From NCBI GenBank assembly GCA_036518375.1, contig DATDNG010000189.1, positions 1-31,653 of the forward strand: a stretch of DNA of 31,653 nucleotides. The letters run 5' to 3'. How positions within the stretch are numbered: the first letter of the stretch is position 1; every line of letters starts with the position of its first letter. The stretch is from Nitrososphaeraceae archaeon. Lineage in GTDB: Archaea > Thermoproteota > Nitrososphaeria > Nitrososphaerales > Nitrososphaeraceae. The notes under the pieces are model-generated. The model saw nothing but the letters and a program-made list of their open reading frames with translations. It made no database searches and was not told the DNA's origin. Below are positions 25,182 to 31,636 of the stretch, piece by piece. Made by a program: the position numbers and the translations under genes.

Positions 25182-26726
25182 TTGGCTTTGCAGAGAGAAA
25201 TTTCTAACGCCCTTTCCTATGCCACTAGCATGGGTTATCAAATTCATCCTGACGCTTTTTCAATGCTGAAGGGTCTTGATATCGACATTTTAAAGATTAT
25301 ACAGGACATTATCAAAAGGAAAATCAAACAAAAGGAAAATTCCCTTATTGTAGTAGAGGATATCAAGATCCACATTAATCCAGAAAACAAATTTGATGTT
25401 GATGTAATTAACATCAACGGCGCCGGGACTTCTGCTGTCACTTCTTTTACTGAACAGAATTTTCATAAAGTAATTTTAGATCCAACTCCAAACGTTAACA
25501 CTGGAGAAGGTATTGAAGGTTATACTGCACTTTTCCGTAGTAGGTTTGAAAAGTCACTTCGCATATTAGCATTACGCCCAGAGAGTAAGCGAATTACAAA
25601 AATTGCTTCTATAAAACAGAGCGTAAATAATGCAAAGAAAGGTAAATCGCATTATGTTGAAGGGAATTCGATTACGAATTCTTCTATAATAGCTGGTTTG
25701 CTAATGTACAAGCATTCAAGGAAGAATGGATTAGAGATGATAATTGATGATCACAGCGGAACATTAAGCGCGCTCGCCAATACTGAAGAATTAAAGAAAC
25801 AAGCTTCTATGATTCCTCTTGACCAAATGGTCATGTTAGAAGTTGAGCGTAATATGAAGGGAATTCAAGGTTTCATTATAAAGAATCTGGTTTCACCAGA
25901 TATTCCTGATCACCTCCCAAATAGATCAAAACATGAATCTTATGCAGTTTTAATTTCTGATCTTCATGTTGGCAGCAAATATTTCATGGAAGCTGAATTT
26001 ATTAGATTTTTAAATTGGCTTTCATCAACCGATGATGAAATTGTAAATAAGATCAGATTTATGTGTATTGGAGGGGATTTAATTGATGGAACAGGCATAT
26101 TTCCTAATCAAGATAAGGAATTACTTGAAATCAATACTACCAGGCAGATGATGCATGTTATGGATTTGCTTGCTAAAATTCCTATGCATATCAAGGTCTT
26201 TGTAATTCCTGGTAACCATGACCTAGGAAGAAGGGCTCTGCCTCAACCATCGCTACCAAAAAAGGATTTCGATAAATTATACTCTTTTGGAAATTTTACA
26301 ATGCTTGGAAACCCTAGCTTAGTAGAATTAGATGGTGTAAAAGTATTGATGTATCATGGACAGAGTTTAGATGATATTATTGCCACGGCTCCAGGTCTAA
26401 GTTATTCAAAGCCAGCAGAGGCAATGAAAGTATTGCTCAAAGCCCGACATTTGTCGCCAATATATGGACAACGTACACCTTTAGCACCAGAGAAAGAAGA
26501 TATGATGGTAATTACTGAGATCCCAGATATATTCCATTCAGGACACGTTCATATCATAGATGTTGAAAATTATCGCGGAACATTAGTGGTTAATTCAGGT
26601 GCATGGCAGGAACAAACTAAATTTCAACAGACTATGGGTATTGTACCAACTCCCGGAATAGCAATTCTAATTAACTTGGCTACCCTTCAGCCATTTCAGC
26701 TGGATTTCAATCAATTATCAATATAA
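25182..26726 (+). CDS. DNA polymerase D small (proofreading) subunit DP1
   Basis: Mre11-like phosphoesterase motifs ISDLHVGS, GGDLIDG, PGNHD, YHG and SGHVH. Also NSGAWQEQTKFQ and an OB-fold region. Confidence 0.95.
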   Translation: MALQREISNALSYATSMGYQIHPDAFSMLKGLDIDILKIIQDIIKRKIKQKENSLIVVEDIKIHINPENKFDVDVININGAGTSAVTSFTEQNFHKVILDPTPNVNTGEGIEGYTALFRSRFEKSLRILALRPESKRITKIASIKQSVNNAKKGKSHYVEGNSITNSSIIAGLLMYKHSRKNGLEMIIDDHSGTLSALANTEELKKQASMIPLDQMVMLEVERNMKGIQGFIIKNLVSPDIPDHLPNRSKHESYAVLISDLHVGSKYFMEAEFIRFLNWLSSTDDEIVNKIRFMCIGGDLIDGTGIFPNQDKELLEINTTRQMMHVMDLLAKIPMHIKVFVIPGNHDLGRRALPQPSLPKKDFDKLYSFGNFTMLGNPSLVELDGVKVLMYHGQSLDDIIATAPGLSYSKPAEAMKVLLKARHLSPIYGQRTPLAPEKEDMMVITEIPDIFHSGHVHIIDVENYRGTLVVNSGAWQEQTKFQQTMGIVPTPGIAILINLATLQPFQLDFNQLSI

Positions 26727-27928
26727 TGCAAAAGGATTGGATCATCTTTTAATGCTTCTTTAATAGTTAAAGTTGGAATTGTAATCTTGATTCTCTGTGA
26801 TCTACCATATCGCCCCTGACTCACTACATTGCTTGTTATCAGACCGAGTTGATCAAGTTCACTTATTATTTGTGTTATACGACGTTGTGTAAGAGGTTCT
26901 TGCTCACTAAGTGAACATAACGACGAATAAATTTCGTACACCTCACCAGTATTTCCATTCTTTGATTTAGTTATCGCCAGTATCACTAGCTTAGTATGGG
27001 CAGTAGAATTTTTTAGAACTTCATAATTTGTATCCTTTTCAATTTTTTCTTGAGCTAATCTAATGTGTTTTTCTTCGACTTTAGAAACTCTTTCCCTCTC
27101 AGCAATTTCGGCGGCGACTCTTAATAAATCAATTGCTCTCCTTGCATCACCATTTTCCTTCCCAGCCATTGCCGCACATAGATTTATTGCCGCATCAGAT
27201 ACTACCTCGTCGTTAAATGCAAGCTTAGCTCTATCTGATAGGATCTTCTGTAATTGTTCTATTGTATATGGATTAAACACCATTTCTTCTTCGCTTAAGC
27301 TACTTCGAACACGAGGATCAAGTTTATCTTTAAACGTAAGGCTGTTAGATATCCCAATTAGGCTGATAAAGCCTCCTTCAGAGATTCGCTCATTTGCCCT
27401 CGTAAAATTATATAAGATATCATCACCATTTTTATCTACTAGCGAATCAATTTCATCCATTACTAAAATAACATAAAACTTTTTCTTTTGAATGAAATCA
27501 AGAATTCTATCTGTAGCTTCGCCCATAGACAGCCCAGTAAAATGTACGTGTAATTTTTTTTCTCCTTTATTAATACCCATATCCTTAGCAATTTCATAAA
27601 GGACTTTGTAAGCGGTATTTGCAGTTTTTGTATTGACAAATGGTACTATTACTTCTATCCCAAGTTCCCGGGCCTTTTTGTGTAAGCGTTCAATTACGTT
27701 TTTAGCCACTGCTGTTTTTCCAGTACCGGGCTTACCAAATAATAAAAGATTAGACGGTCGTGCTTTCCTTAAAACTACAGATAATGCCTGTGCAATTGTT
27801 TTAGTCTCCTCATCTCTAAATGGAAGCTTTTCAGGTACATAGTCTATTGTCAATGTCCGGCGATTTTTGACCAGTGCTTTTCCAACAGCAGCTTTTTCAA
27901 AAATATTGTCAAGCAAATCATCACTCAA
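26711..27928 (-). CDS. cdc6: Orc1/Cdc6 replication initiator
   Basis: YVPEKLPFRDEE, Walker A GKPGTGKT, Walker B MDEID, RVRSSL, GDARRAIDLLR and C-terminal wHTH (RRITQIISEL, GRYG). Confidence 0.97.
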   Translation of the reverse strand: MSDDLLDNIFEKAAVGKALVKNRRTLTIDYVPEKLPFRDEETKTIAQALSVVLRKARPSNLLLFGKPGTGKTAVAKNVIERLHKKARELGIEVIVPFVNTKTANTAYKVLYEIAKDMGINKGEKKLHVHFTGLSMGEATDRILDFIQKKKFYVILVMDEIDSLVDKNGDDILYNFTRANERISEGGFISLIGISNSLTFKDKLDPRVRSSLSEEEMVFNPYTIEQLQKILSDRAKLAFNDEVVSDAAINLCAAMAGKENGDARRAIDLLRVAAEIAERERVSKVEEKHIRLAQEKIEKDTNYEVLKNSTAHTKLVILAITKSKNGNTGEVYEIYSSLCSLSEQEPLTQRRITQIISELDQLGLITSNVVSQGRYGRSQRIKITIPTLTIKEALKDDPILLHYIDN

Positions 27929-27961
27929 CTCAAATCACTCTTAATAAGTGGATCACTCCAC

Positions 27962-27975
27962 ACCCCTATCTTTCC
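27962..27975 (-). promoter_or_regulatory. Mini-ORB-like site in the cdc6 promoter
   Basis: Minus strand GGAAAGATAGGGGT matches 12 of 14 positions of the ORB GGAAATGTAGGGGT, 34 nt upstream of the cdc6 TTG. Confidence 0.55.
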
Positions 27976-28099
27976 TATCCAGCATAATATACTTTTATGA
28001 TAACAAGATGTTAACAATTTGTTTTTAAACATTAAAATCAATAAATATTGATTATCATATAAAATTTTTAAATATTAAATATTCGGTTACGAGTAGCAA

Positions 28100-28120
28100 T
28101 TCCATACGAAACTGTGGGGT
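28100..28120 (+). promoter_or_regulatory. ORB-like element (inverted relative to the other ORBs)
   Basis: TTCCATACGAAACTGTGGGGT: TCCA-n3-GAAA core plus G-string. Confidence 0.7.
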
Positions 28121-28198
28121 GAGCGTTCCGATTAATATATTCGGGTATTAACAATTTGTTAACAAATTTGATGGTAATATAGAAAAGAGGAAGAAATA

Positions 28199-28220
28199 GG
28201 ACCCCTACATTTCCACTGGA
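28199..28220 (-). promoter_or_regulatory. Origin recognition box (ORB)
   Basis: Minus strand TCCAGTGGAAATGTAGGGGTCC matches the archaeal ORB consensus. Identical copy 60 bp downstream. Confidence 0.9.
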
Positions 28221-28258
28221 CTGTTAACTAATCGTTAACATTGTTAACAAGCGATATT

Positions 28259-28280
28259 GGACCCCTACATTTCCACTGGA
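28259..28280 (-). promoter_or_regulatory. Origin recognition box (ORB)
   Basis: Exact 22-bp repeat of 28199-28220. Confidence 0.9.
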
Positions 28281-28469
28281 ATAAAAATGCCTTTATTGAA
28301 ATATAGGTGGTATGTTAACAAGGCAAAGTTGTTAATGCAATATGAACTCTCTCATTTGATGTTAACAAAAACTAAGTAATTTATTATCAATAAAGTTAGT
28401 AGCTGTGTTAAGTGTTAATATGTTAACACTAATTGCACGAAGCAGAAAGATGCTCGAAATTGAGCGTAG

Positions 28470-28640
28470 GTGAAAAAAGATAAAGATAGAACTTGAAGAT
28501 GTTGAAGGTGGCAAGTATAACCTTTCATTAGAAGGTAATATGTCAAAAGATAAAATAATAGAGATCTTTGAATTAATGGAACTGCTTGAACTAAGAGGAC
28601 AAAAAACTAATAATATTAATAATACCGATAGGGTCTACAG
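28470..28640 (+). pseudogene. N-terminal part of an origin-adjacent gene interrupted by IS6
   Basis: KKIKIELEDVEGGKYNLSLEGNMSKDKIIEIFELMELLELRGQKTNN..TDRVYR. The GTG at 28470 is out of frame by one A in an A6 run. Confidence 0.7.
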
Positions 28641-29336
28641 GGCTCTAAAGTTAAGAGATCACTTCCCTGTTACAATGATCTACAAAAAGATTGAACTAAT
28701 TTTGTATATGCTTTAGTTTACATTTCTTTTTTCTGCATGGAAAATAGTAGTCATCAAAGCACTCAGTTCTATCTTTGATATATTGTATAGTTCTTTCTAT
28801 TATGATGCTTTTCTCATGAGAGGAATTGATATGATGATGATCTAATTTCAAGAATTTGCAAGCTTGTGGATACCAGGTTCCACCATCTGTTGGAACTGGA
28901 TGTTTGTCATATCCTTCTGAAAGATTGGATAGGAAAGGTTCTACCACAAACATATTTCGTTCTTTTGATATTATACTAAATAATCCAAGAATTTCCTTAT
29001 TTGTTGGTTGGTTCTATAACAATCCAAAGCCAAATGAATTCTGAACCTACTATCTTGATTACGATCTCATCAATCAACTATGAATTCAGAGATCTTTTTT
29101 TGGAAAATAACTTCTCAGGTTGGTATTTTTGTATCCAATCTCTTATTGCACTATGACTTCTTTTAATAAATCTGGATATTGCTTTGGATGTGCTTCTTAA
29201 TGACAGGCCAAGGGAGTACAGATATAGAAAATATGCTATAATATAATCAGGTTCTGTTCTCTTTCTTATTTGGTATAATATCATAAACGGTAAATAAGGA
29301 GGAAATCTATAGCTTTTTGCTTAACTTTACAGAACC
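28641..29336 (-). mobile_element. IS6-family insertion sequence remnant (696 bp)
   Basis: Terminal inverted repeats GGCTCT--AAAGTTAAG (28641-28655) and CTTAACTTTACAGAACC (29320-29336). Flanked by the 8-bp direct repeat GTCTACAG (28633-28640 and 29337-29344). Confidence 0.92.
28651..29284 (-). pseudogene. IS6-family DDE transposase, multiply frameshifted
   Basis: Fragments LYSLGLSLR..AIRDWIQKY, SEFIVD, GSEFIWLWIVIEP, KERNMFVVE, TDGGTWYPQAC, IERTIQYIKDRTECFDD and HIQN*FNLFVDH (probable TGG>TAG). Confidence 0.9.
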
Positions 29337-29344
29337 GTCTACAG

Positions 29345-29610
29345 GAATGGTAATGACACCAACTCAACAATAGGAACCGCAGAAGTAGAACTTAAGCAAA
29401 ATAATAAAACCTTGGTATCTGGTTCCAAGATATGGAAATTGATTGAGGATAAAGTCTCATCTGTCAACTTCTTCAGATGTTCAAGAGATATTTGAAGAGA
29501 ATTATGACGAACCTATCAACTAAGCATAATTTCTATTATCTGTCTAGGTATTCTGAAAGAGGTAAACTTATTAGGAGCAAAAAAGGGAAGAAATAGGTAT
29601 ACACAACAAC
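29345..29610 (+). pseudogene. C-terminal winged-helix-like part of the IS6-interrupted gene
   Basis: Continues in frame across the target duplication (VYR|NGNDTN..GSKIWKLIEDK). Then TSSDVQEIFEENYDEPI, LSIIS and YLSRYSERGKLIRSKKGKK*VY, with frameshifts near 29465, 29519 and 29536 and a TAG at 29594. Confidence 0.7.
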
Positions 29611-30332
29611 TAGGCAGCAGTCTGTGATTGGAAGTCAGAAGAATACGAGTCAACAGCAATCCAAGGGTCCTTGTAATTTGTTTGCTGATGCGTATTCAGC
29701 TTTAGAAGACCTGTATCCGTGATAGTATATTTAAAGGGTTTGCTACCACTTTCTCTGCTTACAAGGTTTGTTTGATAAAGTCTTTTCATAAGACGTGATG
29801 TATGTTCCCTTGTTCTCCCGATAGCGTATTGTATTTCTCTTGAAGTCCTGGGTCTCTCGATCAGTAATTTTAAGATATGATCTGTAGTGACATTTTGCAC
29901 AGTTGTTGGATTATTTTTGTCAACTATTGTCTTTGATGAGTCCAGAGTGGGCGTTGTCGTGGCCCTATTAGTATAGGGTGTCGAGAATTGTTCTGGCTCA
30001 CGTGATTGATGCTGTGATGTTGAGCTTAGACTATCTGGATTTATATCACGATTAGAAAAACTAAAGGGAACCGGCGATGGATGTTGACGTAGCATCCGTA
30101 ATTCCATAGTGTCTATCCTCGTAACTGATTCCGTAACTGTCTTCTCAAAGCCCTTCAACCTACTCGAATACTCGGAAATAATTGCTTCGATGATATTCTC
30201 GTTAGTCTGCGAAATGGATGTTTTATGATGCAACATTAATTTACTATAAATCATTATGCTGAGAGCACCAATAGCAAAAGATCCTATAATGGACGTCACT
30301 AAGTTCCAATCATAAATCCCGATATTCATCAT
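29610..30332 (-). CDS. Membrane-anchored protein with C-terminal winged helix-turn-helix
   Basis: TM helix LVTSIIGSFAIGALSIMIY, coiled coil, Ser/Thr/Pro linker and wHTH ILKLLIERPRTSREIQYAIGRTREHTSRLMKRLY..PFKYTIT. Start moved to the ATG at 30332. Confidence 0.8.
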   Translation of the reverse strand: MMNIGIYDWNLVTSIIGSFAIGALSIMIYSKLMLHHKTSISQTNENIIEAIISEYSSRLKGFEKTVTESVTRIDTMELRMLRQHPSPVPFSFSNRDINPDSLSSTSQHQSREPEQFSTPYTNRATTTPTLDSSKTIVDKNNPTTVQNVTTDHILKLLIERPRTSREIQYAIGRTREHTSRLMKRLYQTNLVSRESGSKPFKYTITDTGLLKLNTHQQTNYKDPWIAVDSYSSDFQSQTAA

Positions 30333-30385
30333 TATGTCACAATGTAGAGAGATACCGTGATTTATTCTTATAGAGAAAGATAACT

Positions 30386-30757
30386 TTACACCTTGCACAT
30401 TTTCTTTAGAATACTGTTAACAGTAGATGTCACGTTGTATGTAATCTTATTATGAGAAATATCACTATTCACATTATCCAACATCACGACTAATTGATCA
30501 CACATTGTTCCAAGTAGAGAAAGTGTTTGTTGGTCGATAGCTCCAATGGATTTCAATAACAATATACTATAAAGGACGCCGATGATTTTGTTGCGACACT
30601 GCTTTAACTGTCTGTGATACGCACCACGGCTTATATTTTCAGGAACAGTTTGATGAGACAATCGATTATAAATAATATCTATTTGCCTCTCGGTAAATAA
30701 AGAATTTGCAATAATTTCTTTATAAATAATATTAAAGTATGGTTCATACTTATTCAT
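30386..30757 (-). CDS. Conserved-looking hypothetical protein with HTH-like segment
   Basis: SLFTERQI..NISRGAYHRQLKQCR. The upstream track extension overlaps the GGGPS start, so the ATG at 30757 is preferred. Confidence 0.6.
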   Translation of the reverse strand: MNKYEPYFNIIYKEIIANSLFTERQIDIIYNRLSHQTVPENISRGAYHRQLKQCRNKIIGVLYSILLLKSIGAIDQQTLSLLGTMCDQLVVMLDNVNSDISHNKITYNVTSTVNSILKKMCKV

Positions 30758-30895
30758 GAAGCTATACTGATTTGTATACCAACGCATAAAAATATTATGA
30801 TATAGACGGTATAATTGTTTTGTAGAAACATAGTTAAAGAGCATAGAATCATTGATAGCAATGATATACACGGCTATTGACATCTTGGGAGCGAC

Positions 30896-31636
30896 ATGTG
30901 GAATAATGTAGAGGAGTATATTCATAAGGAGATTAAAAAACATGGGACATTATGCTTTCCTCTTATAGATTCTGAAAACTCTTCTGAGGCAGCCTACATC
31001 GCCAAGAAGGCTGAGAAAATAGGAGCTTCTGCAATTTTGGTAGGAGGATCTTCTGCGGTTGATCAACTTGAGCTCATGGAGGTAGTCTCAAGTATTAAGT
31101 CACAAGTCAGCATTCCCGTGATATTGTTTCCTGGCAATGTTACTGGAGTGTCTCCTAAAGCAGACGCTATTTTGTTTAGCTCTTTGCTTAATTCAGAAAA
31201 TCCTTACTTTATTACTGAAGCTCAAGCATTGGGAGCTCTTGCTGTAAAGAAACACAAGATCGAACCATTACCTACTGGTTATTTAATTATAGGTGAAGGT
31301 ACTACCGCATGGTTTATAGGTCGTGCTCGCGGAATCCCCTTCAATAAATCAGGAATTGCCATTATGTATTCTCTAGCGGCACAGTATCTTGGCATGAGAT
31401 TTCTGTATCTTGAGGCGGGCTCAGGTGCCATTCAGAATATCTCGCCACAAATGGTTGCGTCTGTAAGAAAATACTATGACGGAATCCTTATTATAGGTGG
31501 CGGAATTCGAAAACCGGAAATTGCAAAAGAAATAGCTAAAGCAGGTGCAGACATCATTGTAATTGGTACAATTATTGAGAAAGATAAGAACTGGGAAAAT
31601 ATATTCTCTTCAATTATCAACTCTATAAGGAGATGA
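30896..31636 (+). CDS. Geranylgeranylglyceryl phosphate (GGGP) synthase
   Basis: FPLIDSE, ILVGGS, ILFPG, SLLNS.NPYFI, YLEAGSGA and IIGGGIR motifs. Confidence 0.93.
   Translation: MWNNVEEYIHKEIKKHGTLCFPLIDSENSSEAAYIAKKAEKIGASAILVGGSSAVDQLELMEVVSSIKSQVSIPVILFPGNVTGVSPKADAILFSSLLNSENPYFITEAQALGALAVKKHKIEPLPTGYLIIGEGTTAWFIGRARGIPFNKSGIAIMYSLAAQYLGMRFLYLEAGSGAIQNISPQMVASVRKYYDGILIIGGGIRKPEIAKEIAKAGADIIVIGTIIEKDKNWENIFSSIINSIRR

Follow-up and report, generated by a model that had tools for sequence, protein, structure and literature searches.

TGTTAA and TGTGAA boxes accompany the origin recognition boxes at the orc1/cdc6-adjacent origin of Nitrososphaerales

The window analysed here, 31,653 nucleotides long, is the entire contig C189 of a Nitrososphaeraceae genome (G000; 3,481,051 bp in 634 contigs, 35.8% GC), and it carries what is, by every sequence feature examined, an archaeal replication origin of the origin recognition box (ORB) type. 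Our subject is an array of short boxes with the core TGTTAA that lies among the ORBs of this origin, in the 611-bp spacer (30.6% GC) between the orc1/cdc6 initiator gene and a small winged-helix (wH) gene. The Cdc6 protein is 93% identical to that of Ca. Nitrososphaera maunauluensis, the closest named record, which places the genome among soil Nitrososphaeraceae; identity is 83-86% to Nitrosopolaris records and 71-76% to Nitrosocosmicus and Nitrososphaera. The profile Cdc6_C (PF09079) has a single match in the genome, so that one Cdc6_C-bearing gene was found, and the gene for the small subunit of DNA polymerase D (PolD) comes next after it, to the left of the origin. The features of the locus, from the initiator gene rightwards, are the following.

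26711..27928, minus strand: orc1/cdc6 initiator gene (Pfam Cdc6_lid, Cdc6_C and AAA)
27961..27975, minus strand: mini-ORB-like element (CCCCTATCTTTCC), of the repeat family common to the twin ORBs, lying after the putative TATA region of cdc6 and before its start; kept in 13 genomes
27999..28016, no strand assigned: box pair 1, GATAAC-N5-GTTAACA, with an 11-bp period; an exact GTTAAC-N5-GTTAAC pair in most relatives
28017..28097, no strand assigned: AT-rich stretch with the mini-ORB on one side and the inverted ORB on the other; from its sequence, the likely duplex unwinding element
28100..28119, plus strand: ORB opposite in orientation to the twin ORBs (TTCCATACGAAACTGTGGGG); a conserved block of alignment columns
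28147..28164, no strand assigned: box pair 2, ATTAAC-N5-GTTAACA, situated between the inverted ORB and ORB1; kept in the origin alignment
28199..28220, minus strand: ORB1 (GGACCCCTACATTTCCACTGGA), recognised from the repeat family
28222..28249, no strand assigned: box triplet TGTTAAC / GTTAACA / TGTTAACA, spaced by 11 and 9 bp and filling the gap between the twin ORBs; kept at orthologous positions
28259..28280, minus strand: ORB2, an exact copy of ORB1 60 bp downstream, from the same repeat family
28313..28367, no strand assigned: three boxes, TGTTAACA at 28313, TGTTAAT at 28330 and TGTTAACA at 28360, conserved in the alignment
28406..28428, no strand assigned: distal run TGTTAAG-TGTTAAT-A-TGTTAACA, spaced by 7 and 8 bp, 32-54 bp upstream of the start of the wH remnant

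The ORBs combine the dyad TCCAGTGGA with a G-string, occur in direct and inverted orientation, and are all kept in relatives. The stretch at 28017-28097 is almost pure A+T, and its composition makes it the likely site of duplex unwinding; box pair 1 abuts its left edge. Proceeding from that pair toward cdc6, one meets a TATA-like stretch, the mini-ORB and the start codon, so that box pair 1 would sit at the upstream edge of the putative cdc6 promoter. The placement of the mini-ORB between the putative TATA region and the start codon, common to the 13 genomes, makes it a likely site for autorepression of cdc6 by Orc1. In N. maritimus, Pelve et al. (2013) reportedly placed the origin beside cdc6 as well.

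A preliminary description of this DNA, made from the sequence alone, had drawn attention to eight exact GTTAAC palindromes within about 420 bp, accompanied by at least three near-copies. The eight are where it put them, at 28010, 28158, 28223, 28234, 28243, 28314, 28361 and 28422 (418 bp in all), six of them in the context TGTTAACA, and we count five near-copies (GATAAC at 27999, ATTAAC at 28147, GTTAAT at 28331 and 28414, GTTAAG at 28407). Three exact copies do occupy the 38-bp gap between the twin ORBs (28221-28258). The enrichment claimed over chance also holds: GTTAAC occurs 727 times in the 3,481,051 bp of the genome, or 0.21 per kb, and at this frequency 0.087 copies are expected in 418 bp (Poisson probability of eight or more, 7.7e-14), while a local mononucleotide model of the 30.6%-GC spacer predicts 0.20 in 611 bp. 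The origin is the densest GTTAAC cluster of the 3.48-Mb genome. Two further statements stood in part. Copies elsewhere in the window had been called scattered, and the remaining 31 kb do contain only 8 more, but contig C530 of the same genome has another array, of six TGTTAACA. One site had been put inside the putative unwinding region; the GTTAAC at 28158 does fall within the 78 bp that separate the inverted ORB (28100-28119) from ORB1, but the likelier unwinding element is the stretch at 28017-28097, to the left of that ORB.

To define the conserved unit, we aligned 13 origins from ten genera. The letters conserved among them are TGTTAA or its complement TTAACA: boxes 1 and 3 of the triplet keep TGTTAA with C, G or T as the seventh base, and the middle box keeps TTAACA with a variable first base. 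Among 57 exact sites in 11 genomes, the core has a T before it in 72% and an A after it in 84%, which gives the consensus TGTTAACA, a palindrome made of two overlapping hexamers. The spacer of the window holds 18 matches to the hexamer TGTTAA in either orientation, and these half-sites are interspersed among the ORBs, the AT-rich stretch and the promoter of cdc6. Spacing between successive boxes at 73 loci shows a sharp peak at 11 bp (75 cases), with lesser peaks at 12 and at 7-9 bp. Judged by these alignments, the functional unit is the asymmetric hexamer TGTTAA and not the palindrome.

We then followed the boxes through the family, using 22 sampled genomes and a set of 73-80 named Nitrososphaeraceae loci with 2.5-kb flanks. 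Enrichment in orthologous origins, which had been set beforehand as a test capable of refuting the preliminary description, is present and specific to position. In the 22 other family genomes GTTAAC occurs at 7.0 per kb within 560 bp of cdc6 versus 0.11 per kb in the next 940 bp, and half-sites at 21 versus 1.4 per kb in the same two intervals; loci of this sample with none to two exact GTTAAC still have 7-10 half-sites. The 73-80 loci average about 3.8 GTTAAC and 11 half-sites within 600 bp of cdc6. Boxes fall in the bins 0-100 and 200-600 bp from cdc6, and past 600 bp GTTAAC drops to about 0.01 per 100 bp. The distal run corresponds to the bin that is densest in 74 related loci, at 400-500 bp from cdc6. 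At locus L009 (G019:C17) this run, some 470-560 bp away from the start of cdc6, has grown into a tandem array with a 7-bp period, at least six GTGTTAA long, that continues into an assembly gap. Alignment columns under the GTTAAC sites of the window are 96.5% identical within the genus and 75% across genera, compared with 90% and 73% for ORB columns and 76% and 44% for the other columns of the origin. By this measure, selection on the boxes is as strong as that on the Orc1 sites.

The boxes extend through the order in two forms. We collected spacers from about 80 genomes of 16 families, with the origin-flanking winged-helix gene as anchor, and counted 6-mers upstream of that gene without bias toward any motif. 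TGTTAA ranks first in families f1 (14 of 14), f13 (18 of 18) and f4 (7 of 7), and in f9 the one genome with the wH gene at the origin has 15 TGTTAA boxes in its spacer. TGTGAA takes first place in f10 (11 of 11), f12 (7 of 7) and f19 (3 of 3) and is among the top-ranked 6-mers in f11, f6 and f17; f7 is mixed, with TGTCAA among its most frequent 6-mers. Sorted in this way, the sequences divide into TGTTAA in a clade of Nitrososphaeraceae and Nitrosopumilaceae and TGTGAA elsewhere; half of the order has non-palindromic TGTGAAC direct repeats at equivalent places. The common layout consists of pairs with a period of about 11 bp beside the ORBs, plus a pair 40-60 bp upstream of the wH gene; the positions of boxes relative to ORBs vary between families. 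In the cultured N. maritimus SCM1 (G175) the cdc6-wH spacer has 10 boxes and contains the sole chain of three GTTAAC in that genome. Separately, three Nitrosopumilaceae genomes carry off-origin sites with a 20-21-bp palindrome, GTTAACGAA-N-TTCGTTAAC (N. maritimus 1469841-1469860, G187 383221-383240, G142 1396196-1396216), which is probably the operator of an unrelated regulator.

This variation bears on the proposal, made in the preliminary description, that GTTAAC might carry a methylation mark read as by SeqA. On that proposal the palindrome would be the target of an orphan adenine methyltransferase, and the timing or sequestration of the origin would depend on hemimethylated clusters. Clustering of a 6-bp palindrome within an origin agrees with it; the genome has at least four intact N6_N4_Mtase genes of unassigned specificity, and GTTAAC is not depleted (observed/expected 0.98 genome-wide under a Markov model), which is compatible with an orphan enzyme and rules out the avoidance signature of a restriction-modification system. 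However, a mark of the Type II kind needs the exact palindrome, and at orthologous positions this is replaced by TGTTAAG, TGTTAAT or ATTAACA with the hexamer retained; the loci poor in exact GTTAAC but with 7-10 half-sites, and the direct repeats of TGTGAAC in other families, tell the same way. A protein that recognises a hexamer half-site would leave just such a pattern. The search for a methyltransferase identified no cognate enzyme among the N6_N4_Mtase genes and found none of the D12 or C5 class in G000, and N6_Mtase gives one short marginal match. We therefore give scarcely any credence to methylation.

Position likewise bears on the suggestion that the boxes serve transcription alone, as promoter or operator elements of the two divergent genes, cdc6 and wH (TATA-like TTAA cores or the operator of a local repressor), and play no part in replication. 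Box pair 1 does border on the putative TATA region of cdc6, the distal run comes 32-54 bp before the start of wH, and wH genes that have moved elsewhere retain, some 40-55 bp ahead of their start, an element resembling GTTAAG. But most boxes lie between or beside the ORBs, far from either promoter, and genomes whose wH gene has relocated still have the distal run at the origin. Moreover, GC-rich families use TGTGAAC, which is not TATA-like, and conservation matches that of the ORBs over the whole 420 bp. A purely transcriptional role is thus very unlikely.

A scan of the whole of G000 for chains of at least four TGTTAA boxes returned only the origin and the array on C530; with only two chained arrays, a broad box regulon is ruled out. 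The second array (C530:9400-10121; locus L031:4400-5122) begins directly after a tRNA-Ala(CGC) gene and has six TGTTAACA, followed by a convergent gene for a 52-aa AbrB/MazE-like protein and a divergent gene for an archaeal-phage-type integrase of about 380 aa. Seven or more further genomes, from five other genera, carry the same module, with five or six TGTTAACA spaced by 44/12/43/20/21 bp; other module loci are L038:3252-4320, L043, L044, L046, L047, L053 and L066. Its integrase has a patchy distribution (20 of 61 genomes), is multi-copy and is often broken, which identifies the module as a mobile element; no integrase was found in 61 genomes of f10, a TGTGAA-type family. Two longer copies are degraded and give way to transposases and housekeeping genes, and gene content was for this reason set aside as a clue to function. 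The AbrB/MazE-like protein was rejected as the reader of the chromosomal boxes, since it occurs only in the mobile element (two copies and one weak match), and the integrase has no similarity to the host candidates considered below. Either the element uses the host's box reader, or its own proteins read the same palindrome.

Because this array has no ORBs, the boxes can, as far as sequence tells, act independently of Orc1 sites. This matters for the idea that the boxes are a second kind of Orc1/Cdc6 site, either an extended ORB or a low-affinity site for loading. Apart from the mobile element, the boxes are limited to the origin and interleaved with the ORBs, and the first box of the triplet begins 2 bp past ORB1, as a box does in many genera; the genome encodes one Orc1/Cdc6, and its gene adjoins the origin in all genomes examined. 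Set against this, the box is unrelated to the ORB dyad or G-string (the preliminary description had rightly placed it outside the ORB consensus), the element keeps six boxes in stereotyped spacing beside its integrase and AbrB genes without an ORB, a spacing of 7-11 bp is too dense for an AAA+ protein of about 45 kDa, and box positions vary by family with respect to the ORBs. We regard direct recognition by Orc1/Cdc6 as quite unlikely.

The remaining GTTAAC clusters of the genome are of another kind. Those on C627, C377, C75 and C624 consist of GGTTAACC-type sites within a different repeat family, and are set apart from the origin boxes because their flanks differ. They form tandem (cat)GGTTAACC repeats with a 10-11-bp period (C627:698-735, C377:8918-8950, C75:3498-3548 and C624:2864-2924) and adjoin a shared sequence that starts with gatgactttac. 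They are probably the sites of some other protein or a small mobile repeat.

More probably, the boxes dock a protein encoded beside the origin. The preliminary description had suggested a second dimeric protein and had pointed to neighbouring winged helix-turn-helix (wHTH) proteins; a factor other than one that binds ORBs fits the conservation, but a strictly dimeric reader of the palindrome is not required. Two wHTH-type proteins are indeed origin-adjacent throughout the order, although the nearer is a pseudogene in the genus of G000. Three genes come into question.

28460..29659, plus strand: small wH pseudogene, with a frameshift, an insertion and a C-terminal remnant
29610..30398, minus strand: membrane-anchored coiled-coil wHTH protein, candidate reader or tether, with weak TrmB/HTH hits at residues 174-238
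30386..30943, minus strand: helix-turn-helix (HTH)-like partner overlapping the membrane wHTH gene; no Pfam family

The small wH protein (125-190 aa) consists of an N-terminal beta-hairpin and helix, a variable linker and a C-terminal winged helix. Its gene occurs in 139 of 161 genomes of the order, mostly in single copy, and in most families (some 20 families or genera) it lies divergently across the origin from cdc6. An AlphaFold model gives the wH domain a pLDDT (predicted local distance difference test) of about 95, and model and alignment agree that nothing structured follows the wing. By sequence identity the closest solved structures are MecI and BlaI (22-23%), which Foldseek places among its top matches with an E-value of only about 0.01. 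The Penicillinase_R profile (PF03965, cut-off 22.6 bits) scores 28.4 bits with a member from f10, falls below the cut-off for a Nitrosopumilaceae member (L181; 18.6 bits) and for the G000 copy (14.9 bits), and has no match in the small wH protein of L006. Source records label the protein 'hypothetical protein' or 'predicted transcriptional regulator' (the N. maritimus copy is ABX13695.1). The BlaI/MecI family reads TACA/TGTA half-sites, a preference that by analogy suits a box containing TGT. TGTTAA boxes go with the predicted recognition helix LS-[I/V/L/M]-[I/V]-STYL-x-R-[F/Y] and TGTGAA boxes with LS-T-[I/V/L]-STYL-x-R-[L/M/I], a chemically sensible arrangement in which a hydrophobic residue faces T and a threonine faces G. 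The TGTTAA families form one clade in the small-wH protein tree (support 99/96).

The membrane wHTH gene is present in 38 of 41 genomes of the order and stands next to cdc6 wherever contigs allow, even where the small wH gene has moved. The partner is probably co-transcribed with it, and was detected beside it only in f1, f4, f9 and f13, which are TGTTAA-type families; this limited distribution may reflect divergence from the query and not true absence.

These two proteins bring in a further explanation, namely that the boxes are a centromere-like or membrane-tether site read by the membrane wHTH protein rather than a regulator of initiation, and that the mobile element copies the array for co-partition. 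Of the three genes, that for the membrane wHTH protein is the most constantly origin-adjacent, and short repeats in both orientations at 7-11-bp spacing resemble plasmid centromeres; type Ib partition sites are plasmid centromeres of short repeats bound by small dimeric proteins. In heptad or iteron centromeres, which ribbon-helix-helix proteins of the omega/ParG type read, 7-bp units stand in either orientation; the distal run has spacings of 7-8 bp and L009 its 7-bp tandem array, but 11 bp is the spacing that prevails. The presence of the array in a mobile element that lacks ORBs would also suit co-partition, but the elements examined appear degraded, and no genes for replication or partition were seen in them. 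Neither ribbon-helix-helix (RHH) proteins nor a ParA-type partner are among the Pfam matches of the window's origin neighbours, though neither was searched for genome-wide and no search was aimed at ParA. Finally, boxes interdigitated with ORBs and the cdc6 promoter are a better fit to control of initiation, and we consider a tether or centromere alone unlikely.

We thus return to the proposal that the boxes are docking sites for an origin protein, several points against which concern the small wH protein as reader. The origin copy of its gene is dead in all four genomes of the genus. In the window a base has been lost from an A-run at about 28470-28479, after the TTG start, 704 bp are inserted between 8-bp direct repeats (GTCTACAG) at 28633 and 29337, and the C-terminal remnant (29534-29659) contains a stop; other stops and frameshifts disrupt the copies in the three sister genomes. 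An intact paralogue on C526:1623-2132 (minus strand, locus L154) reads LDVIATYLSRY in place of LSIISTYLSRY, so that two positions of the recognition helix that are near-invariant elsewhere are altered. This LD..A type, off-origin, is the sole copy found in genera g14, g12 and g10, and these lineages keep TGTTAAC(A) boxes with a slight shift to the full palindrome. Thirteen relocated small wH genes have at most one or two boxes in their own promoter, near -50, where they are ambiguous with a TATA-like element; relocated copies without box arrays thus give no clear signature of autoregulation. Boxes only 7-8 bp apart would leave little room for winged-helix domains. The correlation between box and helix carries no statistical weight, because it reflects a single evolutionary switch, and it has exceptions in G183, G090 and family f12; covariation was for both reasons rejected as independent evidence. 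In the open literature searched the boxes are undescribed; the paper mapping the N. maritimus origin was outside that literature, and an earlier description is possible.

Because the small wH gene is dead here, the helix of its paralogue is changed and relocated copies lack arrays, we spread the odds on the reader among the candidates. The small wH protein is a possible reader and the likeliest single candidate, at rather less than even odds; the membrane wHTH protein and its HTH-like partner, taken together, are a somewhat more doubtful choice, Orc1 itself is quite unlikely, and the rest of the probability goes to another protein.

Our best explanation, which we consider probable, is that the TGTTAA boxes are docking sites for an origin protein other than Orc1. 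The roughly 18 boxes, with the consensus TGTTAACA, would represent a second conserved class of cis-element at the orc1/cdc6-adjacent origin of Nitrososphaerales, and the GTTAAC palindromes would be the most symmetrical members of the array. They would dock a sequence-specific DNA-binding protein encoded beside the origin, with the small BlaI/MecI-like wH protein as first candidate and the membrane wHTH protein with its HTH-like partner as second. Such a protein would bind in arrays of monomers or dimers, mostly one helical turn apart. Its sites adjoin the ORBs or lie between them, flank the AT-rich stretch on either side and reach the upstream edge of the cdc6 promoter, and a protein so placed would influence the binding of Orc1 or the loading of MCM, together with transcription of cdc6; alternatively, it would tether or segregate the origin. 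The enrichment of the boxes, their conservation in position, the lineage-specific variant and the synteny with the candidate genes are observed directly; from sequence we infer binding by a protein, its possible identities, and an effect that may be positive or negative.

A wider reading joins these elements, and we advance it tentatively, with less confidence than the docking proposal. TGTKAA boxes and one of the origin-flanking winged-helix proteins might together form a second origin-recognition system that spans the order, in ammonia-oxidising Thaumarchaeota and their relatives, in which an accessory initiator, licensing regulator or origin tether co-evolved with the boxes, and the family of elements that integrates at tRNA-Ala might have copied the box array to exploit the host protein. 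New here are the extent of the boxes through the order, including N. maritimus, their TGTGAA variant in particular lineages, the footprint in numbers, the condition of the candidate reader in this genus and the array in the mobile element.

Ammonia-oxidising archaea, which are globally abundant nitrifiers, have replication machinery of a eukaryote-like kind and only one Orc1/Cdc6. Beyond the mapping of a single origin on the N. maritimus chromosome (PMC4010727), the control of replication in these organisms is almost unexplored. A box class conserved like the ORBs, present in cultured N. maritimus and accompanied by uncharacterised genes for DNA-binding proteins at the origin, offers a concrete handle, in that three proteins and one 6-bp box can be tested without genetics. 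If the explanation is correct, it adds an accessory origin factor, comparable to CtrA, SeqA or IHF, to the archaeal initiation scheme, and shows a mobile element borrowing an origin factor.

Several known systems invite comparison. At oriC of E. coli, GATC, Dam and SeqA likewise involve a palindrome that is overrepresented in a few hundred bp and kept in related origins; the sites described here are degenerate, with non-palindromic variants in relatives, and no SeqA-like protein or cognate methyltransferase was identified. Cori of Caulobacter, with its CtrA sites (TTAA-N7-TTAAC), and the factors Spo0A, IHF and Fis illustrate a non-initiator protein with several origin sites extending over the promoter of an initiator gene. 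Our box pairs do read TTAA-N7-TTAAC at 28148-28163 and 28224-28239, a likeness that is probably coincidental, the analogy being one of function only and implying no CtrA-type response regulator. Phage lambda uses IHF and Fis, which also act at oriC, and by analogy the mobile element may borrow its reader from the host.

Among winged-helix proteins, the BlaI/MecI/CopY family (PF03965) is matched by the wH domain of the small wH protein, above the cut-off in one member and more weakly in others, and the boxes contain TGT; in contrast to that family, the candidate has no C-terminal helical domain for dimerisation with a site for cleavage by a sensor protease, has an N-terminal beta-hairpin and helix, and is encoded at the origin and not beside a resistance gene. 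ST1710, a MarR-family wHTH dimer of Sulfurisphaera tokodaii, was crystallised on the promoter site ATTGTTAACAAT (PMC2724296), of which TTGTTAACAA occurs exactly at 28156-28165 and 28241-28250. It belongs to another family and context, a stress regulator at its own promoter, and is a precedent only for a winged helix on this palindrome. Origins of the archaeal oriC1 type (Sulfolobus oriC1, Pyrococcus oriC and N. maritimus oriC) share with this locus the adjacent orc1/cdc6 gene, the ORBs, the AT-rich stretch and, close to the promoter of the initiator gene, the mini-ORB, to which the present origins add a second, equally conserved TGTTAA/TGTGAA class beyond the ORB consensus. At Sulfolobus oriC3, WhiP, a winged-helix protein that is not Orc1 and is encoded beside the origin, reads origin-specific repeats (PMC4010727). 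WhiP is a Cdt1-like initiator that defines its own origin, whereas the boxes described here share the sole Orc1 origin with canonical ORBs, and the candidate is a single-wH protein of 125-190 aa of the BlaI/MecI type.

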